64,000 bases of DNA. It comes from Deltaproteobacteria bacterium. GTDB taxonomy: Bacteria > Myxococcota_A > Polyangia > HGW-17. The translations under genes were made by a program, and so were the position numbers. The DNA lies in contig JAFGWM010000085.1 in the NCBI GenBank assembly GCA_016937155.1, forward strand, positions 11,733 to 75,732, given 5' to 3'. This document shows positions 36,102 to 57,566 of the stretch, one piece after another (within the stretch, counting starts at the first letter, position 1; the number at the start of each line of letters is the position of its first letter). The notes beneath the pieces are model-generated. The model had not been told where the DNA came from. It saw nothing but the letters and a program-made list of their open reading frames with translations, and ran no database searches.

Positions 36102-38223
36102 CTGTCTGATTCATATACCACTGATGAGCAAGACCTAAAATTGTATTTGTAAGAATATACAGTGTCAGTCCTGATGGGAGGAAAAGCATGATTCCAGTAA
36201 ACATAACAGGCATGAAATACATCATCATTTTAGCCTGCTGGTTGTCACCTGATGTCGGAGTGATCTTCTGCTGAATAAACATTAAAATACCCATAAGAAC
36301 CGGCAATACAAAATATGGGTCTTTTCCCGTAAGATCATCAATCCAACCGAATAGTGGAGCTCGGTAGAGTTCAACACTGGCCATAAGAGCATAATACCAT
36401 GCTATATAGATGGGCATTTGCAGAAACATGGGAAGACACCCGCCGAGAGGATTGACACCATGTTTTTTATAAAGAGCCATGATCTCTTCATTCAATTTTG
36501 CTTTGTCCCCGGCGTACTTTTTATTAAGCTCATCCATCTCGGGTTTGAGAGATGCCATTTTCTTCATACTTCTCATAGACTTATTAGTCCAGTAGAGCGT
36601 AGCAAGTTTGATGAGAATAGTCAGAAAAATTATAGCGAGACCCCAGTTTCCAAGAAAACCGTACACTATTTTAAGTAGCCAGATCATTGGCTTTCCAATA
36701 AACCAGAAAATGCCGAAATCCACACTTTCAGACAGTTTCGGATCCGCTGATGGTTCCTCCTTGGAGCCAGCTTCCGGTACCTTTTCAAAAATTTTAACTC
36801 TGTTGAGATGATTCAGGTCTTTGGGACCAATGAAAATTTTAAGAGGAAGTCGTTCAACCTGGCCAGGTTCGAGAACTTTCTTGCCTTTCATTGACATGGT
36901 TGTAATTATCAGGCCATAACCCGGCATTTCCTTGATAGGAACAGCCCTGAATGCACAACCACCATCATCAGCAGTATAGTTTTTGACAACGGCCATCAGA
37001 AAATATCTTGCATCAATTCCAGCCCATCTGGCACCCTTTGCAAAAACACTCTGCTTTGAATTTGTTCTGTTACAACTGCATCCGTCTGTACATCCGCTGC
37101 ATCCCCCACAACCGGATTTCGGACCACTCAAAATAGCTTGATAGCTCTGAACCTGTATACCATCAGAATCAAGACATATTGCTTCTTTTTGAACTGATAC
37201 CGGATTGAAAAATCCCCTTTCAGCCTCATCTTCATGAAGTGAGGGCACCTGAATTTCAATTTTTTTAACAGAGACTTTACTGTTTGTTATATTTTTAAAG
37301 TATACATCCAGCCCTATTTCATAACTATCCCTGTTGAATGTGTATACTTTTCTAATCTCCACAGGAAAACAGTTCTCTTCGGAACCGGATGAGGGAAGAC
37401 ACGGCTTGTCAGTATGAAGTTTCAGAGTAATTATGGTTTTATCACCTGATTCTTTTCTGGACTCCACTTCCCACTTCTGCTCAAGATAAAGATTTCTGGC
37501 CACGTTTGTCACGTGATAAAATGTATGGTTTTCAAGTGCTTCCGCATGCTTTTCAATCTGGATATTGCTGAATACAAAAGGAAGAAAACTGCTGTGCCAT
37601 GTTTTTATCATATCGATGGGATTCAGTTCACGTTCTCTCAGTCCTTTTTTGAGACTTTTTCTGGGTATTACATTTTCCTTAAAAGAAGGATGTTTAAAAG
37701 AAAAAGAACTGAAAACGCCACCATGAATCGTTAACTGGGCTTTGTAATACTTGTTTTCAAAATAGAGTTTGGCATCACTGGCAGATGTAACGTCATGAGC
37801 AGCCGGGGCACTTGTGTGATAAAAAGGACCTGTTTTCTTGCCTTTTGTGAAACTTGGTGCACTTTCAGCCTTTTTCTGCTCAACTCCTTGTGGAGCAGCA
37901 GGGGAAGCCTTCTCTTTTTCGACCTTTACAGCATCCTTTTTTGCCTCATTAGTTGCCGAAGAAAGTTCTGTGGCATCACCTGACTTCATTTCCGCGGGTA
38001 CTGCAGAAGGAACAATATTTTTTGGCTCAGATTTTACTACAGAACCGGTCTTATTATTGTCTCCAGTTTTTCCATGGACGATCTTATCTGCTGGAACTGC
38101 CATGACAGGTGTTGCCATCACGGAATTGGTTTTCCCCGTGGTAGCTGTCTTCTCCTGGGCACAAACGCCCCAAGCACTTACCAGCACAATTACAAAAACT
38201 CCCCATGCAATAATATTTTTCAT
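36088..38223 (-). CDS. yidC: membrane protein insertase YidC
   Basis: Conserved C-terminal 5-TM insertase core. Own start MKNIIAWG with GAGGA RBS located inside the yidD reading frame. Confidence 0.85.
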   Translation of the reverse strand: MKNIIAWGVFVIVLVSAWGVCAQEKTATTGKTNSVMATPVMAVPADKIVHGKTGDNNKTGSVVKSEPKNIVPSAVPAEMKSGDATELSSATNEAKKDAVKVEKEKASPAAPQGVEQKKAESAPSFTKGKKTGPFYHTSAPAAHDVTSASDAKLYFENKYYKAQLTIHGGVFSSFSFKHPSFKENVIPRKSLKKGLRERELNPIDMIKTWHSSFLPFVFSNIQIEKHAEALENHTFYHVTNVARNLYLEQKWEVESRKESGDKTIITLKLHTDKPCLPSSGSEENCFPVEIRKVYTFNRDSYEIGLDVYFKNITNSKVSVKKIEIQVPSLHEDEAERGFFNPVSVQKEAICLDSDGIQVQSYQAILSGPKSGCGGCSGCTDGCSCNRTNSKQSVFAKGARWAGIDARYFLMAVVKNYTADDGGCAFRAVPIKEMPGYGLIITTMSMKGKKVLEPGQVERLPLKIFIGPKDLNHLNRVKIFEKVPEAGSKEEPSADPKLSESVDFGIFWFIGKPMIWLLKIVYGFLGNWGLAIIFLTILIKLATLYWTNKSMRSMKKMASLKPEMDELNKKYAGDKAKLNEEIMALYKKHGVNPLGGCLPMFLQMPIYIAWYYALMASVELYRAPLFGWIDDLTGKDPYFVLPVLMGILMFIQQKITPTSGDNQQAKMMMYFMPVMFTGIMLFLPSGLTLYILTNTILGLAHQWYMNQTDDNA

Positions 38224-38475
38224 TGAAAATCCTCTATCCGATGTTGTTTGTGAGGGTGGTGGATCATATCCGCCTCTTGAAAAGGGGTTGCATCTGAGAA
38301 CACGCCAGATACTGTATAACATACCGATAAGCACTCCCTTGTTCTGAATGGACTCATACGCATAATGACTGCATGTCGGAAAATACCGACATGTTGGAGT
38401 CCTCTTCATGGGCGATAAGTATCTCTGATACACCCTTATCAGTTTTAACAGTAATTTTTTTATCAATTCGGTCAC
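38224..38475 (-). CDS. yidD: membrane protein insertion efficiency factor YidD (in-frame with yidC, no stop)
   Basis: YQRYLSP...CRYFPTCSHYAYESI hallmark; reading continues ...SDRGFS-MKNII into yidC without a stop. Confidence 0.75.
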
Positions 38476-38858: not shown

Positions 38859-39008
38859 TTACTTCTTGAATGCTGAAACGGTCAAGGATTTTCTGCCTCT
38901 TGATCTTCTTCTGGCAAGAACTTTTCTACCGTTCTTTGTAGACATTCTTTGTCTGAAACCATGAGTTCTTAGCCTTGATGTTGTATGTGGCTGATATGGT
39001 CTTTTCAT
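38859..39008 (-). CDS. rpmH: 50S ribosomal protein L34
   Basis: Hand-translated: [49 protein letters not shown]; GGAGG RBS. Not in the ORF track because it is under 60 aa. Confidence 0.88.
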
Positions 39009-39322
39009 CTTACTACCTCCAAATTAAAACAGTAACGGACCAGAACACTATAGTTGGGATCCGAAATCAGGAAGCTGATAGCACCATCCCGGACTAAAGT
39101 CAATGAAAACCTTATGACATCATGCGGCAAAATTCAATGATGCTGAAAAAACTGCTGTTAATGCTCAAAGAATTTTCGTTTATTTTCCTCCTGATCTATT
39201 TCTATCGGTATTCATTCACTGGAAAATTTAAATTTTAGTCACGCTGATTTCCAACAGATACTGTTTCCAAAATGATATTCCCGATACAATTCACCTGTTT
39301 TATTGGTTAACTCCATTATTTA

Positions 39323-39351
39323 TTGACCGGATTCGTTTATCGACTTAATAT
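39323..39351 (+). promoter_or_regulatory. near-consensus sigma70-type promoter TTGACC-N17-TAATAT upstream of the roadblock operon
   Basis: Hexamers and 17-nt spacer read directly; this would give a ~175-nt 5' UTR before the ATG at 39535. Confidence 0.35.
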
Positions 39352-39534
39352 CAGTCAACCCTGAGGAAGGGTAACACGTAAGGATACTGCTGGAAATCAA
39401 GTGGCGTATTTGTTGTTTTTATATGTATTTCAAATAATTATGGTCGTTTCTATCACCATTTGTTTGAAGTAGTTTGTTGTTGCTATTTACAGTACTTATT
39501 CTGTTTTAGGATAATCTGAAGGCTGGAGGAATAT

Positions 39535-39885
39535 ATGTTTAAAGAGCACCTCAGAAAAATAGTAGAAAATGTTGAAGGTGCAAAAGCCGCACTTCTGATG
39601 GAATTTGATGGTATTCAGGTTGACAGTTATGCTCAGGGTGACGTTGACATAATAACCCTCGGTACTGAATTCTCACAACTGATGACACACGTGAAACGGA
39701 CAGCCTCAATACTTGAAGTTGGAGATCTTGAGGAAATGATGGTGAAAACAGAAGATCTTATTCTCGTTTTCAGAGTTGTAAACAGTGATTATTTTCTTAC
39801 CACTGCCCTCTCCTCAGATGGTAATTTTGGAAAAGCGAGATTTGTATTAAGATTGACAGTTCCAAGAATAATGGAGGAATTCTAG
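39535..39885 (+). CDS. Roadblock/LC7-domain protein (MglB-like)
   Basis: 116 aa; GAKAALLMEFDGIQV...LILVFRVV pattern of roadblock/LC7; GGAGGA RBS. Confidence 0.8.
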   Translation: MFKEHLRKIVENVEGAKAALLMEFDGIQVDSYAQGDVDIITLGTEFSQLMTHVKRTASILEVGDLEEMMVKTEDLILVFRVVNSDYFLTTALSSDGNFGKARFVLRLTVPRIMEEF

Positions 39886-39923
39886 TTTTAATTCAGAAAC
39901 TGTAACCATTAATTCAGGAGATT

Positions 39924-42872
39924 TTGGTATTGGCTTCATTCAATAAAGAAAAAGTTGCGGAGAATGCCCAGAAATTTCTCAAAAAAAATCAACTCCGTAA
40001 AGCTTTGACAGAATACAAGAAAATAGTTGAAAATGATCCAACTGACATGCGTTACTGGAAAAAGATTGGAGACCTTCAGGTTCGTAGTGGTGACAAAGCC
40101 GGTGCCATTGAAACTTATCTGAGGGTAAGTGATGATTTTTTCAAAAATGGTTTCTTCTCAAAAGCTCTTGCCATATTGAAACAGATCCAATCTATGGATC
40201 CCACTATCCCTGAGGTTTATACAAAACTTGCAGATGTATACGCGTCTACAGATCTGGCTCCTGATGCACTTTTTCAACTGGAGAAACTCTGCAGGATTTA
40301 TGAAAATAGTGGTGATATTGACAAGTTAATCACAACACTTGAGAAAATGGCTGAGATTGATCCCGGTAAAATTGTTCACAGAATACATCTTGCGGAAACA
40401 TACAGTAAACTTGGAAGAAAACGCGAAGCGGCTCTCAATTTCAGGAAAGTAGCTGACTTTTTATTCGAACAGAATAACGAAACCGATTTTATTCGTGTAG
40501 CCGAACGCCTTTTATATCACGATCCTGATGACATAAAAACAATTAAGCGTTTAGCTGAAAGCTATCTGAAAACTAATAATGCACAAAAAGTTCTGAAAAA
40601 ACTTCTGCAGATTTATCAGTCAAATCCCGATGACATAGAAACCCTGCACCTTCTTGCAAGGGTGTTTTTATCCTCCGGGAAAAGCGATAAAGCAATTTTC
40701 ATCTACAAGGAACTGGCAAAACTTCATGTACAATTGGGAAATAAGGACAAATCCAACGTTGTGTGGAAACGGATTCTCGAGATAGATCCCGATGATACTG
40801 ATGCAAGAAAAGTAATTTATGGTGAGGAAGAAGAAATTTCTGTACCCATAGAAGCAATTGAAATTGAAGATATTGAAGATACGAATGAACCATCTTTTGT
40901 GGAACTGGAAGAAGATGAAATCATAGAAGTTGATGATTTAATAGAAGTCGAGGATGAAGTTGAGGATAAGGAGATTGAGTCCACCAAGCTGCTTGATGAA
41001 AGCGAGGCATTTCTAAAATACGGACTGTTCGACAAAGCCGAGGATAATCTCGAGAAAATTTCTGACAAGGAAAGCATCAGGTTTCTTGATATATCAAAGG
41101 AAATTGCAGTCAGGAAAGGGAAGAAAACACAGGCGATAGATCTTCTGAAAGTACTTGCGAATAAAACTTTTAACAGTGATCGAAAAAAATCAGTTGGTTA
41201 TGCAACCGAGGCTCTGATGATTCAACCGGATCTTAACTGGGCTGAAGATATAATGAATGCCCAGACGGCAAGATCCAAGCCAATGTCAACACTGGAAATT
41301 GCAGCTGCACTTGATATGGATGACGCGCTCGATATGCTGGATGAAATCGGAATTAATCCCATGGAACTTGATGCGGATGATATTCTACTGGATTCTGCCT
41401 TCAAATCCAAGGATATCCAAATTCACTCCGATGAAGAAGTCGAAGCTGCGGTATCAGAAAAAGAGAAAAATTTAAAAAACTCTCAGAACATTTATACCAT
41501 CGGAGATCCAGATGAAGAGAATGATTTGGATGAAATGCTTGAAGCATTGAAAAACCTGACAACTGGAGACCTTCCTGAGTACTCCGAAGATGAAAGCTCC
41601 GTTGATTCAGTTCCTGTGAATGATATAGTTCTGGACACCAGCGGATTTGAAATTGAAGACTTCAGTATTGAAATGGATGAACTGGCAGCACTACAGGAAG
41701 CCAGTCAGAGTTTTATAAGGATCAATGAACTTTCCAAAGAGGAAATCCGTCTGGACTCACTAAGAGGTAAGCCTGAAAATCAGGAGGCTGATTCTTCAAT
41801 TGATGATATTCCAATGGAAGTGGAAAACGAGGCTTCTTTTTCTGATATTGATCCATTTGAGGATTTTTCTCTTGGTGACCTTGATGATTCAACCCCCGCT
41901 GGAGAAATTAGTAACACAGAGACAAAAACACCCAGACCTGAAGACAGTCAGTTTGAACCATCCATGGATAGTTATGAAAAGTTGATGAGCTTCTCCGACA
42001 GAGTCCGTACAGAACTTTCAGACTTCACAACCGAAGATACAGGTTCCGGAAATGAGCCAGCACCTGTTGCTGACACTCCGGATGAAGAGCCTGAACTCTC
42101 AGCTGAAGCTCAGGAAGCTATCAATGAAATAGACTTCTTTCTGGATATGGATTTGATAGATGATGCTCTTCTGGCAGCACGTGAGCTTTATTCCAGGAAC
42201 AACCACTCTCAAATTAGACAGAAGTTAAATGATATTTTAGTTATGGCCGGAGAGGAACCAGAACCTGATACGGAGAAGAACTCAGAGAATCCTCACATTT
42301 CTGAAAAACTGGAAATTTCTGAATTGGAACCGGTTATTGAATCAGAATCATCTGCTGTTTCTGAAGAGGAAGATCTGGCTTTTGATTTTAATGATGAGGA
42401 GGTCACTGCCATACAGGAACTTGATTTCCTTAAGGAACATTCCGATGATGAAACCATAAGAACTGATTCAAAAAATGAATCCGTAAGAATTGAAACAGAA
42501 ACACCTGTTGGTGATGCAAATACGCACTTTGACCTCGGACTTGCGTACAAGGAAATGGGACTTATTAATCAGGCACTTGAAGAATTCAAGTTAGCAATGG
42601 AAGCCCCAGGAGCCTACGTCAAATCAAGTATCATGATTGCCAAATGTATGCTTGAACAGGGAGAAGTGTCCAAAGCCGCTAATGAGTTGAAAGCCGTATT
42701 GCATTCTGATTCAATAAATCCAGATGAAGAACTTGATATTTATTTTGAACTGGGCAAAATCTATTCTGATCTGGATGATAAAAATGAAGCTTTATATTAT
42801 TTCAAGAAAATTGTCAGAAAAGATCCCGATTACCGCGGGGTCAACCGTTTCATTTCTGAACTTGAACAATAA
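39924..42872 (+). CDS. large TPR protein with central poly-acidic region
   Basis: N- and C-terminal TPR-like helical repeats flank an ~500-aa Glu/Asp-rich low-complexity segment. Non-ATG (TTG) start; the exact start is uncertain (39924 or 39930). Confidence 0.7.
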   Translation: MVLASFNKEKVAENAQKFLKKNQLRKALTEYKKIVENDPTDMRYWKKIGDLQVRSGDKAGAIETYLRVSDDFFKNGFFSKALAILKQIQSMDPTIPEVYTKLADVYASTDLAPDALFQLEKLCRIYENSGDIDKLITTLEKMAEIDPGKIVHRIHLAETYSKLGRKREAALNFRKVADFLFEQNNETDFIRVAERLLYHDPDDIKTIKRLAESYLKTNNAQKVLKKLLQIYQSNPDDIETLHLLARVFLSSGKSDKAIFIYKELAKLHVQLGNKDKSNVVWKRILEIDPDDTDARKVIYGEEEEISVPIEAIEIEDIEDTNEPSFVELEEDEIIEVDDLIEVEDEVEDKEIESTKLLDESEAFLKYGLFDKAEDNLEKISDKESIRFLDISKEIAVRKGKKTQAIDLLKVLANKTFNSDRKKSVGYATEALMIQPDLNWAEDIMNAQTARSKPMSTLEIAAALDMDDALDMLDEIGINPMELDADDILLDSAFKSKDIQIHSDEEVEAAVSEKEKNLKNSQNIYTIGDPDEENDLDEMLEALKNLTTGDLPEYSEDESSVDSVPVNDIVLDTSGFEIEDFSIEMDELAALQEASQSFIRINELSKEEIRLDSLRGKPENQEADSSIDDIPMEVENEASFSDIDPFEDFSLGDLDDSTPAGEISNTETKTPRPEDSQFEPSMDSYEKLMSFSDRVRTELSDFTTEDTGSGNEPAPVADTPDEEPELSAEAQEAINEIDFFLDMDLIDDALLAARELYSRNNHSQIRQKLNDILVMAGEEPEPDTEKNSENPHISEKLEISELEPVIESESSAVSEEEDLAFDFNDEEVTAIQELDFLKEHSDDETIRTDSKNESVRIETETPVGDANTHFDLGLAYKEMGLINQALEEFKLAMEAPGAYVKSSIMIAKCMLEQGEVSKAANELKAVLHSDSINPDEELDIYFELGKIYSDLDDKNEALYYFKKIVRKDPDYRGVNRFISELEQ

Positions 42873-42892
42873 AACCGCAAAAGAGGTTTGTG

Positions 42893-44272
42893 ATGGCCGG
42901 TGAAAAAATTCTTGTCATTGATGACAGCCCCACAATTCTGAAAGTAGTTGAACTGGTTCTCACAAAGGCTGGTTTCAAAATTGTCAGTGCTGCCGATGGC
43001 GTGGAAGGAATCGAAAAAGCTGAATCAGAAATGCCTGACATGATTCTGCTGGATTTTGTTATGCCCAAACTTAACGGTTACCAGGTATGCAAACATCTGA
43101 GTGAAGATGATAATTTGAAGGATATCCCTGTGGTTCTAATGAGTGCCAAAGGAGAACAGGTGGGAGAGCGCTTCGTAAAAGTGATGGGAATAGTTGACTA
43201 TATCACAAAGCCCTTCAGCCCCGAGGCAATTACTGCTGTTGTTACCCACACACTTTCGAGAATCAGCGGAGAAGTGGAGCAACCTCCTGCTATACCTCAG
43301 ACAAGAGAAGAAGCTATGGAGGAAGCTGATTCCGAGACAAAATTATGGAAACAGGCTCTGTCCAGAATGCGTGGTAATATTTCCAGAACCGTTGCTGGTT
43401 CAATCAAGTCTGCTTTTACAATAGATGCTGCCCCGGACATCATTGTTTCAGAAATAAAAAGTGCTCTGACTGATAATTTTCTTGAAGCATGTCTTGGGGA
43501 ACTGAGAAGTCAATCACCAAAACTACTGCATGAGGAGGACAGCGGACTTACAGGTGATTTATCAATTATACCTGTGTCTGAAATATTTGTTCTTCTGCAG
43601 AGCCAAAAACAGACAGGTGCATTTACTGCCAGTATGGGGAATTCAAAAGTTGATATATATTTCAACGGGGGGAAAGTGGATCTGGCAAGTGCTGCAGGTG
43701 TCAGTGATGAATATCTTCTGGGACGCTATATTATTGAACTTGAATTGATGTCCAGAGACGAACTCGATGATTTCCTTTCGGACCCGGAAAATAGAAGTCT
43801 TCTGGGACTTCAGTTGATAAAATCCGGAAGGCTGGGTACAAAGGATGTCAAGCAGGCGATGTCCATGCAGACAAAAGAGCTTTGCTATGAGCTGCTAAGA
43901 TGGGATTCAGGAAGATTTACTTTCAGGAAAATTAAAGAACTCCCTGCTGTGGCAATAGAAGCTAATCTTGGATTAAGTATAGATGGTATCCTAATGGAAG
44001 GTTTCCGAAAAGTCGACGAATGGCATGTCATTGAAAGGGAAATTGATGATTTTGATTTGGTACTTCTCAGAAATGATGATGCAATTGTACAGATAGGAAG
44101 ACACAGACTCGAAAAAGATGAACTGACGGTACTTGAACTGATAAACGGAAGAAATACTGTCAGGGATATTATCAGAAAGAGTCGAATGGGCTCTTTTGAT
44201 GTAACTAAAATGCTGTACAGACTTCTCAGTGCCAAGCTGGTCCGGAAAAGAGTAAGTGCCGTCGCAACATGA
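42893..44272 (+). CDS. response regulator with REC plus DUF4388 domain
   Basis: REC (ILVIDDSPT...DMILLDFVMPKLNG) followed by GDLSIIPVSEIFVLLQSQKQTGAFT (DUF4388-type). AAGAGG RBS; ATG at 42893 is preferred over GTG at 42890. Confidence 0.8.
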   Translation: MAGEKILVIDDSPTILKVVELVLTKAGFKIVSAADGVEGIEKAESEMPDMILLDFVMPKLNGYQVCKHLSEDDNLKDIPVVLMSAKGEQVGERFVKVMGIVDYITKPFSPEAITAVVTHTLSRISGEVEQPPAIPQTREEAMEEADSETKLWKQALSRMRGNISRTVAGSIKSAFTIDAAPDIIVSEIKSALTDNFLEACLGELRSQSPKLLHEEDSGLTGDLSIIPVSEIFVLLQSQKQTGAFTASMGNSKVDIYFNGGKVDLASAAGVSDEYLLGRYIIELELMSRDELDDFLSDPENRSLLGLQLIKSGRLGTKDVKQAMSMQTKELCYELLRWDSGRFTFRKIKELPAVAIEANLGLSIDGILMEGFRKVDEWHVIEREIDDFDLVLLRNDDAIVQIGRHRLEKDELTVLELINGRNTVRDIIRKSRMGSFDVTKMLYRLLSAKLVRKRVSAVAT

Positions 44273-44310
44273 AAATTCAGAAATTTCTGATTTAGTTAAG
44301 TAGGTAAAAA

Positions 44311-44682
44311 ATGGCAACTATATTGGTAGCTGATGATTCCCCAACTTCCAGAAAGGCGATTTCGTCTGTACTGGAACCTCTGGGCCATGAAATTATTCAA
44401 GCCTATGACGGAGCTGAAGCTTGGGAAAAAATTCAAATTTCAAAGCCGGATATTGTAATTCTTGATATACTCATGCCCAAGATTGGGGGTTTTGAGCTTT
44501 CAAGACAAATTAAAACCACGTCAAACCTCTCCCATATTGGGATTATTATTCTTACCTCACTTAAGCAGCAAACAAATAAATACTGGGGACTTAAACAGGG
44601 GGCAGACTTTTATCTGACAAAACCTGCTCATCCCAGAGAACTTGTTTCCTGCATTGAGTCACTGATGGAGACGGGCAGTTGA
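44311..44682 (+). CDS. single-domain CheY-like response regulator
   Basis: ILVADDSPTSRK...DIVILDILMPKIGG...K receiver motifs. Confidence 0.85.
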   Translation: MATILVADDSPTSRKAISSVLEPLGHEIIQAYDGAEAWEKIQISKPDIVILDILMPKIGGFELSRQIKTTSNLSHIGIIILTSLKQQTNKYWGLKQGADFYLTKPAHPRELVSCIESLMETGS

Positions 44683-45116
44683 CATCTTTCAAAGTTGTAG
44701 TTTTTCGACTTGGAGACCGATTCGCCGCACTTGAAGAGAAATATTCTGAAGAATTCTTTGTTTTAAACCATATCACCAGGGTTCCAGTTGCTCCTCCATA
44801 TATGGGAAATATATGCAACTGGCAGGGCAATATAATACCTGTAATTGATATTTCACCTTTTTTTGGTGAAAAAGCCAGAAGTGTTGTCACAAAACTTGTT
44901 GCAATTGCAGTGAACACTTCAGGGAAAGACAATCTGTTTTCTCTTGTAACTGACGGAGTAGAGGGAGTTTATGAACTCACAGACAAAACAGAAGAGAAAA
45001 ATGATTTACCCTTTTTCTCATCTAATCTGTTAGAGTTCAGAGGCGGAGATATTTATATGATTTCTCCGTTTATAATTGAAAAATTTATTACAAACCATCT
45101 TAAAAAGATAATTTGA
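44679..45116 (+). CDS. cheW: CheW-like coupling protein
   Basis: CheW-domain pattern (VVVFRLGDRFAALE...IIPVIDI). TTG start overlapping the CheY stop (TTGA). Confidence 0.75.
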   Translation: MTSFKVVVFRLGDRFAALEEKYSEEFFVLNHITRVPVAPPYMGNICNWQGNIIPVIDISPFFGEKARSVVTKLVAIAVNTSGKDNLFSLVTDGVEGVYELTDKTEEKNDLPFFSSNLLEFRGGDIYMISPFIIEKFITNHLKKII

Positions 45117-45124
45117 GAAAAGCG

Positions 45125-47356
45125 ATGAAAGCAAAAAGAAAACTTGCAGACAGGATTTTTCACCTTGGTATTACCATGATCCTTGTTCCTCTTGTGCTTC
45201 TGGTGGCATTACTGACAATCGTTTTTGTCAAACAAAAGAGGGTTCACACTGAATATGATACCGTAGTAAGGAAACTGCATTCAGATATGGACTCTATTGA
45301 TAAAAGACTTCATACTTATACCGTCCAGCTTAATGGTAATCAGAAGAAAATTCAGGATATAACCAGAAAACACAGCCTGAACAATATGAAGGAACAAATA
45401 AACTTCAGTGTAACTCAACTCCTCAGCACCCTGATCGGACACGGAATTATTAAAACAGATTTTGATCATACAATACTTCTAAGTCTTTACCTTGATAATA
45501 CTCTGAAGACAATTCAGGAACTGAGGCGAAATATCACCTCAAAAGATCCCCTGGATAAACAGGTAAAAATTACTGAAAAAGAAGAAGATAAAGGAAAATT
45601 AAAAAACCTCGATAAAATAGATTCTCTTGATCTTAAAATCAAAGAACTTTCTAGGAATTCCAGTGTAATTGACAAATCAAAACTTGCTAAACTATTAAAC
45701 TCCTTTTCTAAAAACGCCAGAATGGGAAATACCGGAAGGGTTATTTTCATAATAGAACATACCAGTTTGCATAAACACCAGATTGCGTGGTCAACACAAC
45801 CAGGATGGACAGGCAAGTTTATGGAGGATTTTGAACTGCTGCAGCCTTTGAGAGGTCTTTTAATTTCCAAGAATTACATGGAAAAATTCATGAAATTTCA
45901 GAGAGGCGGTGAAAGGGCATTTCTCCTCTACAATCTGATTCCAGCTACATCATCGTCAACTGATGCAAAGTATAACATTTCCACTGATAATTTTTATGGG
46001 ATGATTCCTGTGTGGGGGACACCCTATAGTCTTGGTGTACAAACATCAATGGCTGGGGATCTCGTTTCCACATTGGATTCCATTAGTAATTCTCTGGGTA
46101 ATATCAGTTCTTTCCTTAAAATAGCTAATGTTGATATTAGAAATGCAGATCAGTCCACAAAAAAGCTTCACAAAAGGTTCGGTACCGAGACCAGATCATC
46201 CAACAATCTTTTTCTTTATATAATAATATTTGCAGTAATTTTTGTCGGTGTTGTATTTTACCTGATAATCAGATCAATTCAGAGACGTCTCGTGGAACCG
46301 GTACTTCATATTCAGGATGTTACTTCCCATATCGTCGAGGGTGAATATTCAGCCCGCTGCACTCTTGAGACAAATGATGAACTTCAGGAGTTATCAGAAG
46401 CTATCAATGTCATGCTTGATCGTATTGTAACCCTGATTCAGAGTGAGGAGGACAAAATTTCAATGCAATCGGATATTGTCCAGCTTCTGGATGTTGTTTC
46501 TCAGGCATCCAATGGCGATCTTACTATACGTGGCCAGGTTTCAACTCCTGACTTTCAGGCAGTTATGGATGCATTCAATCATATGATGAGCTCCATCGGA
46601 AGCCTGGTAATAAAAGTTCGTTCCAGTGGAAATGGTGTTGAACACTACACAAAACTTATGCTTGATTCATTAAAACAGATACTCGAAAAAAGTACCCGTC
46701 AGGCAAATGATTTGGATATTGCAGCAAGAAAAATAAAGGCATTAGGAGATAGAAGTCAGGAAATTACCAGAATGGTTGAGCAAATTGGCTCCATTGCAAT
46801 GGAAACAAACACACTTGCACTTAACGCTACTCTCGAAGCATCAAGATCCGGAGACAGAGATACCGGAATAAGTCATTTAGCTGAACATGTGAGACAGCTT
46901 GCAGACGGACTGAAAAAAACAAAACAGGATATCGACAGTTTCATGGGAAGTATTCAGTTGGCTACTAATCATGCAGTCCAGTCAATGGAGGAAGTCCTCA
47001 TTCTTACTAGAGAAACTGCAGGGGAAGCAAGATTGAGTTTTGAGACAGCAAACAATACACATCAGGAAGCAGACCAGCTGGCTAAAAGTATTAGTATTTT
47101 TAAAATTAAATCTCAAATGGATGCTGAAAGAGAAGTCGAACTTAAATCATCGGTAAAATCCATCCTGAAAGATATTAAGCAAACCCGAAAACTTATTGGT
47201 GTTATGGATACAATGGAATTTGAATCCATGAATGATATTCTCAATGAGTTTGAAGAAAGCATAAGAGAAATGGGATTCCTTTACAGCAAAGCAATGTCAG
47301 ATGGTGAACGCTCACCCTCAACTGATGACGAAATCCCCGCAATTATCGAGGATTAA
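45125..47356 (+). CDS. methyl-accepting chemotaxis protein (2 TM, HAMP, divergent short signalling domain)
   Basis: HAMP (LVEPVLHIQDVTSHIVEGEY) and signalling-domain core IAMETNTLALNATLEASRSGD. ATG 45125 is preferred over TTG 45113. Confidence 0.78.
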   Translation: MKAKRKLADRIFHLGITMILVPLVLLVALLTIVFVKQKRVHTEYDTVVRKLHSDMDSIDKRLHTYTVQLNGNQKKIQDITRKHSLNNMKEQINFSVTQLLSTLIGHGIIKTDFDHTILLSLYLDNTLKTIQELRRNITSKDPLDKQVKITEKEEDKGKLKNLDKIDSLDLKIKELSRNSSVIDKSKLAKLLNSFSKNARMGNTGRVIFIIEHTSLHKHQIAWSTQPGWTGKFMEDFELLQPLRGLLISKNYMEKFMKFQRGGERAFLLYNLIPATSSSTDAKYNISTDNFYGMIPVWGTPYSLGVQTSMAGDLVSTLDSISNSLGNISSFLKIANVDIRNADQSTKKLHKRFGTETRSSNNLFLYIIIFAVIFVGVVFYLIIRSIQRRLVEPVLHIQDVTSHIVEGEYSARCTLETNDELQELSEAINVMLDRIVTLIQSEEDKISMQSDIVQLLDVVSQASNGDLTIRGQVSTPDFQAVMDAFNHMMSSIGSLVIKVRSSGNGVEHYTKLMLDSLKQILEKSTRQANDLDIAARKIKALGDRSQEITRMVEQIGSIAMETNTLALNATLEASRSGDRDTGISHLAEHVRQLADGLKKTKQDIDSFMGSIQLATNHAVQSMEEVLILTRETAGEARLSFETANNTHQEADQLAKSISIFKIKSQMDAEREVELKSSVKSILKDIKQTRKLIGVMDTMEFESMNDILNEFEESIREMGFLYSKAMSDGERSPSTDDEIPAIIED

Positions 47357-47359
47357 TCC

Positions 47360-50300
47360 ATGTCCGCTGTAAATAAAATTCAGATGTATCATTTGCTTAA
47401 ATCGCTGCATGATCATCCTGACAGCCGCATAAGAGATTTTGTTTCAATTGATTTCCTCAATTTAAAAATCGAATCAACAGAGAAAAATGATAATCTTCTG
47501 AATGATCTTTCAGATCTCTGTACTGACTCCGAACCGGATTCCGAGGATATAAGTGGTTTTTATGATGAAGAAATGCTAACTGCCCTTTTGGAGGTTTTCA
47601 GAGAAGAAGCCAATGAGCATTTGGATAATCTTCTGATTCAGATGAATTCCTACCCGTTGCCTGTTTATGATATTTACCGGACATTCCATACAATAAAGGG
47701 AAGTGCAGCAACTGTCGGGTTGACAAAAATTTCAGGCGCTTCAAAACTCCTCGAAGATGAATTCCATATATTTGCTGATAGCAAATCCATTCCTCAGCAG
47801 GATGAACTGTTTATCCTTGGCTTCTCTGCCGTCCTTCTGGCACTAATGGTGGTGCAGGGAGATGATCATGTTGATTCAATCAGAGGTGCACTGACTCTGA
47901 TGTCAGATGCTCACAATGAGGAACCTGAAGATAAAAATACTTTCACTGCAAATAGTCCCATCCATGATAACAGTAATAAAAATGCTGAAGTAACTGTCTG
48001 TGAAGATACAGTAGTTGACGAAATGGAAGCTATCCTTATGGAGGTATTCTCTCAGGAGGCAGAAGAGCATCTCGAATCATTTGACACCCTTGTTGAAGAA
48101 TTATCAAACGGGAATGATGTTATTCACGATCTTTTCAGAGTTACACATACTTTGAAAGGAGCCGCCGCGACTGTTGGAATAAGTAGGGTTAGTGACGCTG
48201 CACATGCTCTTGAGGATTTCTTTGAAACCCTTGAAAAAGACGGAGGGAAACTTGATAAAAACGACGTACTGAAGATATTACATGCAGGACAGTTGCTGAG
48301 AAATTCACTTACAGATTGCTCAGCCGAAACTGTTCAGGAAATAATCAGTACTATATCTGAGATAGATACAGGAAAAAAAGAAACCGCGCCTCTGCCTAAA
48401 GAAAACAGACAAAAGCAGACCACAACGGGAAGCAGAAACACAACATCAAGTATTCTCCGAATTAAAGTTGATGATATTGACAAGTTAATAAATACAAGTG
48501 AAGAACTTGTTCTTGTGAGAACTCAGATTGAAAAGAGCAGAGATGATTTCAACAGTATCACTGGAGATCTTCTGCTGAGTCACCACACACTCCGGAATTT
48601 CCTTATGGAAGACAGGAACAAAATGTCGGAGGCGGAAAGACTCGAAAGACTTTCCGAGCTTGAAGTTGAAATAGCTGAACTTATCTATAATCTTGAACAT
48701 TCAAGTTCAAATCTCACTACAGAATGTGTCAGTCTACAGACACTTGCCAGAACTGTTCAACAAAGGTTAATCGCTCTACGCATAACTGATTTCGAACTCC
48801 TCTTTATAAAGCTTAAGCAGGCTGTAAGAGAGCTCGCCTTTGCTTCAGATAAAGAGATAGAAATGAAGTTCACCGGACAATTTGTGGAAGTTGATAAGGG
48901 TGTTATTGATTCACTGTCCTCACCTCTGCTGCAGATTGTAAGAAACTGTGTCGCTCATGGAATTGAACCTCCTAAAAAACGGAGAAAAGCTGGCAAATCC
49001 GCCGGTGGACTTATTAAAGTTGATGCAATTCAGGAGGGTCATTTTGTCAGAATTATAATTGAAGATGATGGGAAAGGAATTGATACTGAAAAAATCCGTA
49101 ATGTAATCAGAAAAAGAAATCTTGTGGAATCAGAATCTGACATTGACCGACTTAAAGAAAAAGATCTTTTTGAAGCAATCTTTCTTCCCGGGTTTACAAC
49201 CAAGGATACTGCAGACTCAATGTCCGGAAGAGGTGTGGGACTTGATCTGGTCAGGGAGAAAATCAGAAAACTTGGTGGTGATGTTTCAGTGAAATCGGAA
49301 TCTGGAACTGGGACAAAATTTACCGTACGGGTTCCTCTGACAACTTTTATTTCCAGGGCTCTATTATTCACCATAGGAAACGAAGTATACGGAATACCCA
49401 GCGCTTATTGTGTCGAGACAATGGAATATATAAGTAAGAAAGAGATTTCTGTAGGAGCAAGGGTTATCTGGAACAGTGAATCCATTCCTATAATACCGCT
49501 GCATCACTATTTTGGTATTGAACGGCAGCAGTTTCTTTCAAGACCCTATTCTGTAATTATTTTAAAGCATGGCGAACAGCATTTCGGAATTGCAACAGAT
49601 TCCACAATCGGGATAAAGGATGTTACGGTTAAGCCAATTGGAAAGCTCCTCAGTTCCCTAAGATATTTCAGTGGAGCAATTATTTCAGGTGCAGGAACCA
49701 TCCAGTTAATATTTTCAGTTCCATTTTTATCAACTCTTGCAAGACCGACAATAGGCTTCAGAGCTTCTAAAGAAATTCAGAAACATATTTCAACTCCCAG
49801 AATTCTTGTTTGTGATGACTCCAAGAGTGTCCGTGAGGCCGCATCAAGAATAATTGCGGGTGCTGGATATGAAGTCACAAAGGCCCAGGACGGTTGGGAA
49901 GCCTGGAATATTCTTCACAGCGAGCGATTTGATCTTGTACTGACCGATCTTGAAATGCCAAGGATGAATGGGTGGGAATTAATTAATGAGATCAAGCGGG
50001 ATATGTTTCTCGAAGGAGTACCTGTTGTAGTGCTCTCATCACGAACAGGTGAAACCAGCCGAAAAAAAGCTATGGATGCAGGTGCAAACTATTTTGTATC
50101 AAAGCCAATAAAACCACTTATTTTACTTAGAGTACTGGAACAGTTTGTACCACTGGATGATACATCAATGAGCAATAGAATTGTCTTATTCGCCACAACA
50201 AATAAAGGAAAAGTCCTTGAGCTCAATTCGCTTATCGCAGGGTTAAATCTTGAAATCTGGGGAATGGATCAGTTCCCCCAGTTGGAAGACGTTATTGAGG

Positions 50301-50785
50301 ACGGTGCCACTTTTGAGGCTAATGCTATAAAGAAAGCCAGAATCCGCTGCCTTCAGACAGGTCTACCCTCCCTTGCAGATGACAGTGGACTTGAAGTATC
50401 AGCTTTGAATAACGAGCCGGGAATACACAGTGCCAGATATGCCGGTGAAAATGCAACCGACAATCAGAAAGTCGACTTTTTGCTTAAAAAAATGGAAGGT
50501 ATAACTGATCGCAGTGCCAGGTTTGTCAGCGTACTTGCATTCTGCACTTCTCCCGAGTCTACTCCAATCACAGTAAAAGGTGTGTGTAATGGATATATCG
50601 GACACATACCATCAGGTACAAATGGATTCGGTTATGATCCGATATTTATGCTGCCAAAAGGAAAATCCATGGCAGAACTCACAATGGATGAAAAAAATGA
50701 AGTCAGTCACAGAGCTGATGCTATGAATCAGATGCTGCCAATTCTGATGAAATTTGCCTCAGAAGAAAATTCTGATACACACTGA
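47360..50785 (+). CDS. cheA: CheA-type histidine kinase (2x HPt, dimerisation, HATPase, CheW-like, REC) continuing in-frame into an RdgB/Ham1 dITP/XTP pyrophosphatase domain
   Basis: Two HPt motifs (HTIKGSAATVG; HTLKGAAATVG), GVGLDLV G-box, CheW-like domain, REC (RILVCDDS...DLVLTDLEMPRMNG). The Ham1 domain occupies the last ~205 aa of the same ORF with no intervening stop. Confidence 0.85.
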   Translation: MSAVNKIQMYHLLKSLHDHPDSRIRDFVSIDFLNLKIESTEKNDNLLNDLSDLCTDSEPDSEDISGFYDEEMLTALLEVFREEANEHLDNLLIQMNSYPLPVYDIYRTFHTIKGSAATVGLTKISGASKLLEDEFHIFADSKSIPQQDELFILGFSAVLLALMVVQGDDHVDSIRGALTLMSDAHNEEPEDKNTFTANSPIHDNSNKNAEVTVCEDTVVDEMEAILMEVFSQEAEEHLESFDTLVEELSNGNDVIHDLFRVTHTLKGAAATVGISRVSDAAHALEDFFETLEKDGGKLDKNDVLKILHAGQLLRNSLTDCSAETVQEIISTISEIDTGKKETAPLPKENRQKQTTTGSRNTTSSILRIKVDDIDKLINTSEELVLVRTQIEKSRDDFNSITGDLLLSHHTLRNFLMEDRNKMSEAERLERLSELEVEIAELIYNLEHSSSNLTTECVSLQTLARTVQQRLIALRITDFELLFIKLKQAVRELAFASDKEIEMKFTGQFVEVDKGVIDSLSSPLLQIVRNCVAHGIEPPKKRRKAGKSAGGLIKVDAIQEGHFVRIIIEDDGKGIDTEKIRNVIRKRNLVESESDIDRLKEKDLFEAIFLPGFTTKDTADSMSGRGVGLDLVREKIRKLGGDVSVKSESGTGTKFTVRVPLTTFISRALLFTIGNEVYGIPSAYCVETMEYISKKEISVGARVIWNSESIPIIPLHHYFGIERQQFLSRPYSVIILKHGEQHFGIATDSTIGIKDVTVKPIGKLLSSLRYFSGAIISGAGTIQLIFSVPFLSTLARPTIGFRASKEIQKHISTPRILVCDDSKSVREAASRIIAGAGYEVTKAQDGWEAWNILHSERFDLVLTDLEMPRMNGWELINEIKRDMFLEGVPVVVLSSRTGETSRKKAMDAGANYFVSKPIKPLILLRVLEQFVPLDDTSMSNRIVLFATTNKGKVLELNSLIAGLNLEIWGMDQFPQLEDVIEDGATFEANAIKKARIRCLQTGLPSLADDSGLEVSALNNEPGIHSARYAGENATDNQKVDFLLKKMEGITDRSARFVSVLAFCTSPESTPITVKGVCNGYIGHIPSGTNGFGYDPIFMLPKGKSMAELTMDEKNEVSHRADAMNQMLPILMKFASEENSDTH
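50168..50785 (+). other. rdgB: RdgB/Ham1-family non-canonical purine NTP pyrophosphatase domain (internal Met MSNRIVLFATTNKGK)
   Basis: ATxNxGK, ADDSGL, ARF, FGYDP, SHR motifs, all in the RdgB order; in-frame with cheA. Confidence 0.8.
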
Positions 50786-50787
50786 TT

Positions 50788-52824
50788 CTATTTATTTTTA
50801 GGGATATATTTACTGCATCTGAACCCTACATGAGGAAACTGTTTTGACGCACTTAATCCCTGACGGTAGGTGGATCTTATCGAGCCCGTAGACCATCCAC
50901 CACCCCGTAAAGTATGCTCATCGTTCTTCCAATTTTCCGGGCCGGAGGGGTCTTTGAGAATCTTTTTTGAAACTTTTGAATAATATAACTCATCATAGAA
51001 GTCGGAAGTCCACTCCCAAACATTCCCACTCATATCCATAACACCAAACGGACTTTTACCTTCCTTTAAACTTCCAACAGGCCATGTCGATGATTTTCCA
51101 CAACCCTCACCGGCTGTACTGAATATAACTGCTTTCTTACAATCTGCTTCTGTCTTCCCCCAGGGATATAAATTTAATTTTTCGTTACCTCTTGCGGCGT
51201 ACTCCCATTCGGCCTCAGTGGGAAGACGTTTTGACGCCCAGGCACAATAAGTATTTGCCTGACTCCATGTAACACAGTTAACAGGATGATTTTTTCTGGC
51301 TTCATTTTTCCAGTTGCAGAATTTGGCTTCTTCCAGATTTTTTTGGAATTCTACAGGTTCTGTGCACACACGACTTTTTACACATTTTGCATACTTTTCT
51401 ACAGTTACTTCATACCGGTCAATTATATATGGAGCAAGACAAACCTTGTGCAGCGGCTTTTCACCCTTTTCTCCACCTTCAAACCCCATATTAAAACACA
51501 TATCAGGAGCATTTATCACGACATTTTCAGAATCACTTTGCGGAACAGGCGGTTTTGGGGGGTTCAAATCAGATTTCGGTGTAACTTTTTTTATAACTTC
51601 AACTTTCATAACTTCCGGGGTTTTCTCAACTATTTCTTTCTTATCGGCAACCACTGTTTTGTTTTTTTCAACTGAATCTCCCTTTAGCACAAAATTCTTG
51701 ATAATAAAAAACAGTCCAAGTGCAAAAACAGAACCTATAACTACCCCGGCTATTACCCCTATTGTTGCCCTTTTTGTTCTGCTCCCCCCCATTGTCGAAT
51801 GAGTAAGAAGTGCTCCTGATTCAATTGTAGCTGATTCTGATATATCAATATCACTAGAGTGATCCTGTAATGAACTCCGTCCAGAAGTAATTCCAGGAGA
51901 ACTCCTTATAGAGCTTATCTGCATCTGCTGTTCACGGACAAGATCCGCTGCCAGAATTTCAGGATCGACGTTCTTAATAACTTCAAAAAATTCGGTGAAA
52001 AATTCCTTAACAGATCCGTACCTTTCTTCAGGATTTTTTCTAAGACACTTCAGTACCACTTCACTGAGTTCCGGAGGTAAATTCTTAACCTTATCCTTCA
52101 GAGGTTCAGGTTCCTCAAGAATAAGATTAACCAGAAGATCGCTTACACTCCTGCCCTTTATTGGAAGTTCTCCACTGAGCATCTGATAAACAATAACCCC
52201 CAGACTGTAAATATCTGTGTGAGGACCGGTTTTTTCAATTTCGCCTCTGGCCTGTTCCGGTGACATATAAGCAGGTGTTCCGATTACCTGACCGGTTTTA
52301 GTCTTATGCGAAGTTGCTTCTGTGGATTCAGTTAGTTTAGCTATCCCGAAATCAAGAATCTTTACGTTGTACTGGTTGTCTCTTTCAGAAACAATTATAT
52401 TATCGGGTTTCAAATCCCTGTGAATTATCGAATTCTGATGGGCCGCGTCAAGGCCATCCACTATTTGCCTTACTATCCCGAATACTTCACCAATGCTGAA
52501 GGAGTCTCTCTCCTTCATAATTTTTGTGAGTTCTTTTCCTTCTATGAACTCCATGATGCAGTAATACCGTGTATCTTCCAACTGACCAAAATCAAAAATT
52601 CTAATGATATTCTGATGGAGTATTTTGTTTACAGCCTTTGCTTCAGAAATAAACCTGTGCACAACAGTTTCATCAGAAGAAAATGCCTGATTCAAGATTT
52701 TTATGGCAACCTTACTGCCAATATCAGGATGCTCCGCAAAATACACGCGACCGAAAGCTCCTTCACCTAAAAGCCTCTGAACCTTGTAACTTCCTATTGT
52801 GCTGCCAATTAAAATATCTTCCAT
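50788..52824 (-). CDS. Ser/Thr protein kinase with TM helix and C-terminal formylglycine-generating-enzyme (FGE-sulfatase) domain
   Basis: Kinase motifs (VAIKIL, HRDLKPDNIIV, DFGIAK); TM segment; C-terminal HPVNCVTW...GNVWEWTSD...RGGGW FGE hallmarks. Confidence 0.85.
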   Translation of the reverse strand: MEDILIGSTIGSYKVQRLLGEGAFGRVYFAEHPDIGSKVAIKILNQAFSSDETVVHRFISEAKAVNKILHQNIIRIFDFGQLEDTRYYCIMEFIEGKELTKIMKERDSFSIGEVFGIVRQIVDGLDAAHQNSIIHRDLKPDNIIVSERDNQYNVKILDFGIAKLTESTEATSHKTKTGQVIGTPAYMSPEQARGEIEKTGPHTDIYSLGVIVYQMLSGELPIKGRSVSDLLVNLILEEPEPLKDKVKNLPPELSEVVLKCLRKNPEERYGSVKEFFTEFFEVIKNVDPEILAADLVREQQMQISSIRSSPGITSGRSSLQDHSSDIDISESATIESGALLTHSTMGGSRTKRATIGVIAGVVIGSVFALGLFFIIKNFVLKGDSVEKNKTVVADKKEIVEKTPEVMKVEVIKKVTPKSDLNPPKPPVPQSDSENVVINAPDMCFNMGFEGGEKGEKPLHKVCLAPYIIDRYEVTVEKYAKCVKSRVCTEPVEFQKNLEEAKFCNWKNEARKNHPVNCVTWSQANTYCAWASKRLPTEAEWEYAARGNEKLNLYPWGKTEADCKKAVIFSTAGEGCGKSSTWPVGSLKEGKSPFGVMDMSGNVWEWTSDFYDELYYSKVSKKILKDPSGPENWKNDEHTLRGGGWSTGSIRSTYRQGLSASKQFPHVGFRCSKYIPKNK

Positions 52825-57240: not shown

Positions 57241-57566
57241 AACAAAACTCCTGTAAAAATAAAATACTGAATTAACCATAGCATGGTAAATGAATTTTTC
57301 AATTTTTTCCATTAATTATAATCAAAATTTCACAGTTGAAGCTTTAGAAAATCCCAAAAAATATAAAAATAGTTCCATAACACATAAACGTACTGATATT
57401 TTTTTAAAGTATGTAAAAATTTAGAGACCAAAGCAATTGATAAAGAGCCAAGGTTATAATTTTGTAGACTCCACTGCATAACTGATTTTGAAATTCCCTG
57501 GATAAGTGGTATTATACCCACCATTCTGATAAAATTCAGGATAATTCCAGTAGAGGAAAATTTTAG

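Follow-up and report, generated by a model that had tools for sequence, protein, structure and literature searches.

An operon in an uncultured Polyangia lineage that may join MglC and an SgmX-like protein to a pilus-type chemosensory pathway

The best explanation we can offer for a cluster of seven genes on contig JAFGWM010000085.1 (assembly GCA_016937155.1; the 64-kb stretch analysed here, positions 11,733 to 75,732, is called the window) is that it forms one operon of an uncultured Polyangia lineage, in which proteins of MglA polarity and type IVa pili are joined to a pilus-type (Pil-Chp/Tax1-like) chemosensory pathway. The genes encode, in order, an MglC ortholog, an SgmX-like tetratricopeptide repeat (TPR) protein, a response regulator with a receiver (REC) followed by a PATAN domain (REC-PATAN), a single-domain CheY, a CheW, a methyl-accepting chemotaxis protein (MCP) and a hybrid CheA kinase that ends in an RdgB/Ham1 domain (Table 1). 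We suggest that the pathway is independent of methylation and that phosphorylated REC-PATAN targets the pilus motor, the SgmX/MglC polarity hub, or both, a reading to which we give a probability slightly above one half (about 0.55). What the sequences themselves show is the domain content, the orthology of MglC, phospho-acceptor and catalytic residues that are all in place, the synteny, and how the module and the kinase fusion are distributed. Every component family is already known. The combination (a reversed PATAN regulator in a non-cyanobacterial pilus-type system, the operon fusion with MglC and SgmX, and CheA-REC-RdgB) is without description in the literature searched.

All seven plus-strand open reading frames (ORFs) were confirmed between 39535 and 50785, packed tightly as one cluster with intergenic gaps of 38, 17, 38 and 3 nt and two 4-nt TTGA overlaps, by which the CheW gene overlaps each of its neighbours; the tight consecutive spacing described in an earlier, sequence-only reading of this DNA thus stands. 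Upstream the cluster is bounded by a divergent rpmH-rnpA-yidD/yidC-mnmE-ribH-nusB block and downstream by a convergent Ser/Thr kinase gene, the stop codon of which is 2 nt from that of cheA. Non-shadow ORFs of 120 aa or more were scanned with Pfam throughout the 64 kb, and no CheR, CheB, MglA, MglB, RomR, pil or flagellar gene was among them. The same reading had reported that the cluster lacks CheR and CheB and has no adjacent mglA, and this holds for the whole window; neither CheR/CheB nor flagellar genes lie just outside the cluster, across the window or in six related loci.

Table 1. Features of the cluster and its surroundings; positions are those of the window unless another locus is named
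Feature	Position	Strand	Basis
rpmH	38859-39008	-	ORF upstream of cluster
Presumed operon promoter region, divergent intergenic rpmH (-)/mglC (+)	39009..39534	none	Position
MglC ortholog, 116-aa Roadblock/LC7 protein	39535..39885	+	PDB 7CT3 E=7e-26; Pfam Robl_LC7 24.4 bits
SgmX-like TPR protein, 982 aa	39924..42872	+	NCBIfam NF052243, E=6e-75
REC-PATAN response regulator, 460 aa	42890..44272	+	Pfam Response_reg 7-118, DUF4388 221-379
Single-domain CheY-like receiver, PilH/PixH position	44311..44682	+	Pfam Response_reg, E=5e-25
CheW coupling protein, PilI/PixI position	44679..45116	+	Pfam CheW, E=4e-13
Transmembrane MCP	45113..47356	+	Pfam HAMP 391-439, MCPsignal 526-683
Hybrid kinase CheA-REC-RdgB/Ham1	47360..50785	+	Pfam; TIGR00042
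RdgB/Ham1 domain of CheA	aa 942-1126, nt 50183-50737	+	Pfam Ham1p_like E=7e-59
Ser/Thr kinase with transmembrane segment and C-terminal FGE-sulfatase (formylglycine-generating-enzyme-like) domain	50788-52824	-	Convergent on cheA
Metagenome loci with mglC and an SgmX-like gene: L114, L093, L105, L107, L119, L134, L146, L162, L091, L088	L114: 10001-15957		

MglC is a paralog of MglB, the GTPase-activating protein (GAP) of MglA, and in Myxococcus xanthus it serves as the rear-pole scaffold for RomR and MglB. The first protein of the cluster had been described as an MglB-like Roadblock protein, an assignment that we replace with MglC. In a phmmer search of the Protein Data Bank (PDB), its residues 2-115 align with 3-119 of M. 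xanthus MglC (PDB 7CT3) at 42% identity, no other Roadblock-family chain appears at E<=10, and the remaining matches are two of noise, a flavodoxin and an uncharacterised protein. The protein is short like MglC (116 aa, compared with ~120 aa), without the N- and C-terminal extensions of MglB, and its G63 aligns with G67; the short form and this glycine have been given as features of MglC (PMC7949163). Given that MglC was the single Roadblock family member found in this search at E<=10 and that the length is that of MglC, an MglB-type GAP was rejected. In an alignment of the clade orthologs with M. xanthus MglC (A3), F24, D25 and I27 are invariant, as are K100, R102 and R106; these are the FDI residues, which form the MglB-binding interface, and the KRR residues, which form that for RomR (PMC7949163, PMC10329633). 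Judged by its sequence, the protein is orthologous to M. xanthus MglC.

In M. xanthus, type IVa pili at the leading pole are activated by SgmX, an effector of MglA-GTP (PMC7519303, PMC7668184) and a cytoplasmic protein of ~1000 aa with N- and C-terminal TPR blocks and a middle without domain (PMC7519303). The second protein of the cluster matches the NCBIfam model for the 'type IV pili formation protein SgmX' from end to end (residues 7-980 against 2-1013 of 1065), the next-best family being MamA, as a local TPR match only. Its Pfam TPR matches are found at aa 15-296 and 938-970, and the middle is acidic and largely non-TPR; the poly-acidic core noted in the earlier reading is confirmed, with 29% Asp/Glu and 8% Lys/Arg in residues ~301-850. 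Within the clade the best-conserved parts are an N block (aa 41-280) and a C block (aa 841-960). A homolog search with the N-terminal 300 aa returned 14 short TPR proteins only; it carries little weight, since the query protein itself and its close orthologs were unrecovered. We suggest that the protein is SgmX-like and a candidate type IV pilus activator.

The REC-PATAN regulator consists of a phosphorylatable receiver, a helical linker, the PATAN/DUF4388 domain (PF14332, E=1e-21, model positions 1-122 of 122) and a conserved C-terminal helical region. Residues D11, D12, D55, S85 and K107 of the receiver are invariant in 20 homologs, and the receiver is 41-47% identical to those in the PilG/PilH position that head betaproteobacterial and acidobacterial clusters. 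There are 1724 homologs of the full regulator; among the matches listed, identity is 50-74% over the full length, and those named by source are all from metagenome-assembled genomes of Myxococcota or 'Deltaproteobacteria', including Polyangia and Kofleriaceae. The public gene call of the window protein (P0001) begins one codon later than ours. AlphaFold2 models reach a predicted local distance difference test score (pLDDT) of up to ~76; the PATAN part gives no significant fold match in the PDB, and a profile search of the PDB with the REC-PATAN alignment finds receivers only. In Synechocystis the PATAN domain provides the output by binding PilB1 and PilC, and a plain CheY antagonises it (PMC11181946, PMC10519157).

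That plain CheY has its positional counterpart in the fourth gene of the cluster, the product of which retains D8, D9, D52, T82 and K104 and the DDSPT motif. The MCP is predicted by hydropathy to span the membrane twice (aa 15-40 and 363-388), and the intervening periplasmic domain (aa 41-362, ~320 aa) matches no Pfam family. The second transmembrane segment leads into HAMP and a further HAMP-like linker, which are followed by the short and divergent hairpin; the last 84 aa (aa 664-747) form a C-terminal extension with an acidic tail. The short and divergent signalling domain described previously is borne out: the hairpin has ~11-12 heptads per arm, and its tip, 'EASRSGDRDTGIS' at ~aa 578, departs from the usual MCP consensus EAARAGExGRGFAVVA. 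An alignment with the PilJ of an Accumulibacter cluster (L078) shows a 'GDLT' linker common to both.

The kinase contains two Hpt domains (H110 and H263), HATPase_c, a CheW-like P5 and a receiver (D863). Its earlier description as CheA-REC is correct as far as it goes; the C-terminal RdgB/Ham1 inosine triphosphatase (ITPase) domain, which follows the receiver after a linker of ~10 residues, had been missed. This domain scores 169 bits with TIGR00042 (cut-off 145.35) and aligns over its full length with 3TQU and E. coli YggV/RdgB (1K7K), with the nucleotide-binding and catalytic motifs TxNxGK, ADDSGL, FGYDP and SHR kept. It differs from those enzymes in that it is not free-standing, and the junction has been seen in this clade only. 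The ORF runs uninterrupted through the REC-Ham1 junction in all four sequences translated (window, L081, L001 and L003), two further relatives have the fusion called as a single gene of 1205 or 1213 aa with Ham1p_like (L086 and L087), and the fusion is found in every locus that reaches the 3' end of cheA, L088 being cut within the kinase core. Each of the 17 clade kinase clusters (clustered at 90% identity; 46-100% identical to the query) carries PF01725. We therefore rejected an assembly or annotation artefact as the source of the fusion, since the ORF is unbroken in the four sequences checked and the 17 clusters share the architecture. Among 1.84 billion 50%-identity representatives, searched exhaustively with HMMER, only two proteins span REC and Ham1, both of this clade; a third candidate proved to be a tandem Ham1-Ham1 protein. 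NCBI labels these 1100-1200-aa kinases just 'RdgB/HAM1 family pyrophosphatase', which hides the kinase. The domain is probably an active ITP/XTP (inosine/xanthosine triphosphate) pyrophosphatase that became fused to CheA in this clade, and we found no earlier description of the CheA-REC-RdgB architecture in the literature searched.

Once members of its own clade and a small number of further Myxococcota kinases are set aside, the kinase homologs listed bear the names ChpA or PixL in their source records and come from gamma- and betaproteobacteria, cyanobacteria and Chloroflexota, WspE appearing only at the tail of the list; this affinity reflects the source annotation of the homologs and is not a phylogeny. 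One of the ChpA-named homologs (P0138) and a homolog of REC-PATAN are on contigs that are both 10,626 nt long, and together they probably represent another Myxococcota PATAN module.

Both names lead to pilus systems with which the last five genes can be compared. One is Tax1 of Synechocystis (PixG-H-I-J-L), which has the same five-gene order, a PATAN-bearing first regulator, a plain CheY second and a CheA-REC hybrid (PMC11181946), and which likewise has no CheR/CheB (PMC11181946, PMC10519157); PixL-named kinases are among the homologs of the window CheA. The two systems differ in the first regulator, which in Tax1 and other cyanobacterial proteins of the PatA/PixG kind is PATAN-REC (PMC11181946), and in sensing, for which Tax1 has GAF/phytochrome photosensors and the window a periplasmic domain. 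In addition, the window operon belongs to a heterotrophic myxobacterium, is joined to mglC and sgmX, and has the extra RdgB on its kinase. Two Calothrix loci found through the receiver motif were not of the PatA type, and the cyanobacterial domain order therefore rests on the literature. That literature presents PATAN-bearing first regulators as a cyanobacterial peculiarity (PMC11181946, PMC10519157). PATAN-bearing chemosensory systems of probable pilus type are not confined to cyanobacteria, as one is found here in a heterotroph with the domain order reversed.

The second comparison is with Pil-Chp, known from Pseudomonas and its relatives (PilG-PilH-PilI-PilJ-(PilK)-ChpA-(ChpB)). The Accumulibacter locus is a true example: it has two receiver genes and CheW, its receptor bears PilJ-N, and its ChpA combines at least four Hpt domains with a receiver. 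Genes 3-7 of the window follow the order of that locus (two response regulators, CheW, MCP, CheA/REC). Also shared are a multi-Hpt kinase with a C-terminal receiver, the ChpA name of many of the nearest non-Myxococcota kinases, and receivers with the DDSPT motif at the 41-47% identity given above. The window differs in having two Hpt domains only, no PilJ-N sensor, a shorter hairpin, no CheR/CheB, and a PATAN output on its first regulator. By gene order and kinase affinities, we would class the five-gene core as pilus-type and not Frz.

In the mechanism that we propose, the transmembrane receptor would sense a periplasmic cue and control the two-Hpt CheA through CheW, and CheA would phosphorylate three receivers, those of REC-PATAN, of the single-domain CheY and of its own C-terminus. 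REC-PATAN, in the PilG/PixG position, would be the main output, and the single-domain CheY, in the PilH/PixH position, would act as antagonist or phosphate sink. Phosphorylation would free PATAN to dock on the PilB/PilC extension motor and/or on SgmX/MglC, and this docking would set which pole makes pili, or whether pili form. All receivers and both Hpt domains of the module retain their phospho-sites; the routes of phosphotransfer, the targets of PATAN and the pilus or polarity output are what we infer. A direct link between the module and SgmX or polarity is plausible because M. xanthus SgmX binds the receiver-like domain of FrzS (PMC11580455), because co-occurrence of SgmX with the PATAN proteins MXAN_3211 and MXAN_4965 in STRING has been reported, although left unstudied (PMC11580455), and because the literature places PATAN genes in the vicinity of mglA/mglB (PMC4316618). 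The output, which the sequence-only reading called unknown, is thus narrowed by the SgmX-like pilus activator and by the binding of PATAN to PilB/PilC in cyanobacteria.

Relatives of the cluster were surveyed by context look-ups and by tblastn of fetched loci. The full seven-gene layout recurs in L081/L082, L086, L087, L003 and L088, and in part in L001, and wherever the upstream sequence is long enough to tell (L081, L086 and L087) the same rpmH flank is present. Metagenome-assembled genomes with the operon include GCA_018821305.1 and GCA_036802685.1. In these three, identity to the window is 70-87% for MglC, 76-86% for CheY, 64-74% for REC-PATAN and 38-66% for the others; the recurrence of the same layout at 38-87% identity per gene indicates that the window genes are under selection. 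The relatives span 40-67% GC. The window, L003 and L081 are at ~40% GC, which is unusually low for Myxococcota, and the other relatives with the same operon are at 55-67%, so the clade covers a large compositional range. In other Polyangia (L083 and L084), the five-gene core of REC-PATAN, CheY, CheW, MCP and CheA-REC occurs alone, without MglC, SgmX, RdgB or CheR/CheB.

The association of mglC with sgmX is by comparison widespread. A search from the MglC side gave 80 metagenome loci, 17 of them informative for sgmX downstream, and in 10 of the 17 an SgmX-like gene follows mglC at a distance of 0.02-3.3 kb, usually 2-3 kb. In the one such locus examined (L114), aroQ and biotin-carboxylase (accBC) genes lie between the two. 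The spacing probably matches that in M. xanthus, where MglC is MXAN_5770 and SgmX MXAN_5766 (PMC4719450, PMC7519303) and where secA-like and tamAB genes come after sgmX (PMC3983030). Direct adjacency of mglC and sgmX is found only in the clade of the window and in L091. The PATAN-che genes follow sgmX only in the clade of the window, in one of nine MglC loci with at least 6 kb downstream. Since mglC...sgmX is widespread and PATAN-che is confined to one clade, the attachment of the che module to mglC-sgmX is a derived but stable feature of that clade.

Even where Polyangiales loci are reduced, REC-PATAN still has a CheA-type kinase beside it. At 10001-14523 of L016, it is accompanied by an uncharacterised 230-aa protein and a CheA-like kinase that has Hpt and HATPase_c alone, without CheW domain or receiver, and no MCP or CheW gene is nearby, which suggests a pared-down version of the module. 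Large Ser/Thr kinases with dual kinase domains are placed divergently ahead of REC-PATAN in L083 (4203-9818, minus strand), L084 (4162-9879, minus strand) and L009 (6598-10050, minus strand). As such kinases always precede REC-PATAN in other Polyangia, even without che genes, there may be a second, kinase-based partnership.

Several of our observations weigh against a pilus or polarity role, and they need to be set beside the evidence above. The window contains no pil gene and no mglA, mglB or romR, and accordingly pili and the rest of the polarity module are only presumed for this host. The SgmX model gives a score of 253 bits, far under the 1800-bit equivalog cut-off; the receptor has no PilJ N-terminal domain (PF13675) by Pfam, and the N-arm of its hairpin is ~54 aa shorter than in the Accumulibacter PilJ. 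REC (7-118) precedes PATAN (221-379), the reverse of the cyanobacterial PATAN-REC. As to context, the che module is attached to mglC-sgmX in one clade only, beyond which sgmX is followed by other genes; elsewhere the module adjoins the divergent dual-kinase Ser/Thr kinases (L083 and L084), and some Kofleriaceae keep REC-PATAN beside a Ser/Thr kinase with no che genes nearby. Synteny alone is also weak evidence of function, because the housekeeping genes aroQ-accBC separate mglC and sgmX elsewhere.

In a rival reading the pathway serves an alternative cellular function (for example polysaccharide, development, choice of division site or transcription) and the mglC-sgmX adjacency is a lineage-specific accident. 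The separation of the module from mglC/sgmX in other Polyangia and the one-in-nine count of the MglC-side survey would then be expected, and precedents can be named: PatA, founder of the PATAN family, governs the patterning of heterocysts (PMC4316618), and the C-terminal helices of REC-PATAN give weak local fold matches of helix-turn-helix type. The latter are not significant (best E=0.13), the operon-tight spacing and a seven-gene order kept across relatives of 40-67% GC would be hard to ascribe to accident, and the experimentally established partners of PATAN are PilB/PilC (PMC11181946), with the SgmX-PATAN co-occurrence in STRING (PMC11580455) pointing the same way. We regard an alternative function as unlikely.

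Another possibility is that the cluster comprises two abutting transcription units, mglC-sgmX and REC-PATAN...cheA, which are uncoupled, and that the RdgB fusion amounts to neutral read-through of a housekeeping gene next to it. Such an arrangement would fit the widening of the intergenic gaps to 99-224 nt in L081, the widespread mglC...sgmX synteny without che module, and the RdgB motifs, which resemble those of an ordinary housekeeping enzyme. In the window, however, the gaps at issue are 17-38 nt, and a promoter and terminator scan found no terminator-like site above chance between the genes. Both adjacency and fusion are maintained among deeply diverged relatives, where CheA identity falls as low as 46%, and the REC-Ham1 junction of L001 has no Met, hence no ATG from which a separate rdgB could be started. 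We consider uncoupled units distinctly improbable and prefer a single operon.

The single operon invites comparison with the polarity and pilus network of M. xanthus (MglC, SgmX, MglA, MglB, RomR, FrzS and SopA). The MglC of the window is orthologous, with FDI and KRR kept, the SgmX-like match extends over the full length, and mglC and sgmX are neighbours elsewhere in Myxococcota. In the window mglC and sgmX lie side by side, with none of the aroQ-accBC genes that L114 has between them, and the che module comes after them, whereas in M. xanthus polarity is switched by Frz. The window pathway resembles Frz in being chemosensory, in having a CheA-REC hybrid and in plausibly acting on cell polarity; it differs in lacking a FrzCD-type cytoplasmic receptor, FrzF/FrzG and the FrzZ/FrzX architecture, and in a kinase that is nearer to ChpA/PixL. 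Genes for a dual-REC (FrzZ-like) protein, CheR or CheB are absent from the window and the related loci. A Frz-like reversal system, in which an oscillating chemosensory pathway would flip MglA/MglB polarity and control the reversals of gliding and twitching in the way known from M. xanthus Frz, can appeal to the FrzE-like hybrid kinase and to the presence in the operon of the polarity protein MglC, which is needed for Frz-induced reversals in M. xanthus (PMC4719450, PMC10329633), but it is very improbable in view of the transmembrane receptor with HAMP, so different from FrzCD, the absence of FrzF/FrzG from the window and every related locus, the absence of a dual-receiver FrzZ, the nearest kinases being ChpA and PixL, and a PATAN regulator that is no part of Frz. 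The sequence-only reading had proposed control of polarity or twitching rather than flagellar chemotaxis by a Frz-like system with an MglB-like Roadblock protein; its non-flagellar character, the lack of methylation enzymes and the linkage to polarity and pilus proteins remain, and the two labels fall, that of Frz on the grounds of the two-segment HAMP receptor, the missing FrzF/FrzG and FrzZ, and the ChpA/PixL affinities just given.

In myxobacterial motility it is open by what route chemosensory signals reach the MglA module and SgmX, the link between Frz and polarity in M. xanthus being partly understood. An operon with MglC, SgmX, a PATAN regulator and a complete Chp/Tax-type pathway yields predictions on protein-protein contacts and phosphotransfer that can be tested, and for the Myxococcus polarity field its main use is as a specific candidate link between chemosensing, PATAN proteins and SgmX/MglC. 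A more far-reaching proposal, which we put forward tentatively and think has little better than a slim chance of being right, is that REC-PATAN is a phospho-switchable adaptor that links the Chp/Tax-type pathway directly to the MglA hub, through the TPRs of SgmX (in the manner of the FrzS pseudo-receiver) and/or through MglC, and that RdgB is perhaps a receiver-controlled pyrophosphatase. If this were true, the operon would represent a Frz-independent, possibly older means of steering front-rear polarity and pilus activation, the M. xanthus PATAN proteins MXAN_3211 and MXAN_4965 would be predicted as missing partners of SgmX, and a receiver-controlled RdgB would be a new kind of two-component output instead of a passive housekeeping passenger.

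The presumed promoter region of the operon lies between rpmH and mglC. Its best sigma-70-like site is TTTACA-18-GATAAT at 39486-39515, 20 nt ahead of the mglC ATG; promoter-like sites upstream of mglC are not enriched over shuffled sequences, and an Rfam search of the intergenic region gave no match. We dropped an oriC reading of this region because no DnaA-box cluster is found next to rpmH.

Elsewhere in the window there are two more Ser/Thr kinases, at 5507-6511 (minus strand) and 59060-60157 (plus strand). Large ORFs without any Pfam match are found at 13282-15576 (minus strand, 764 aa), 55021-57312 (minus strand, 763 aa) and 57567-59054 (plus strand, 495 aa); L081/L082 has a 495-aa gene at the corresponding site downstream of the cluster. 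In the divergent block upstream, YidD, the membrane-protein insertion efficiency factor, is fused N-terminally to YidC in one 795-aa ORF (36088-38475, minus strand), and the same YidD-YidC fusion is called in the relatives L081, L086 and L087.

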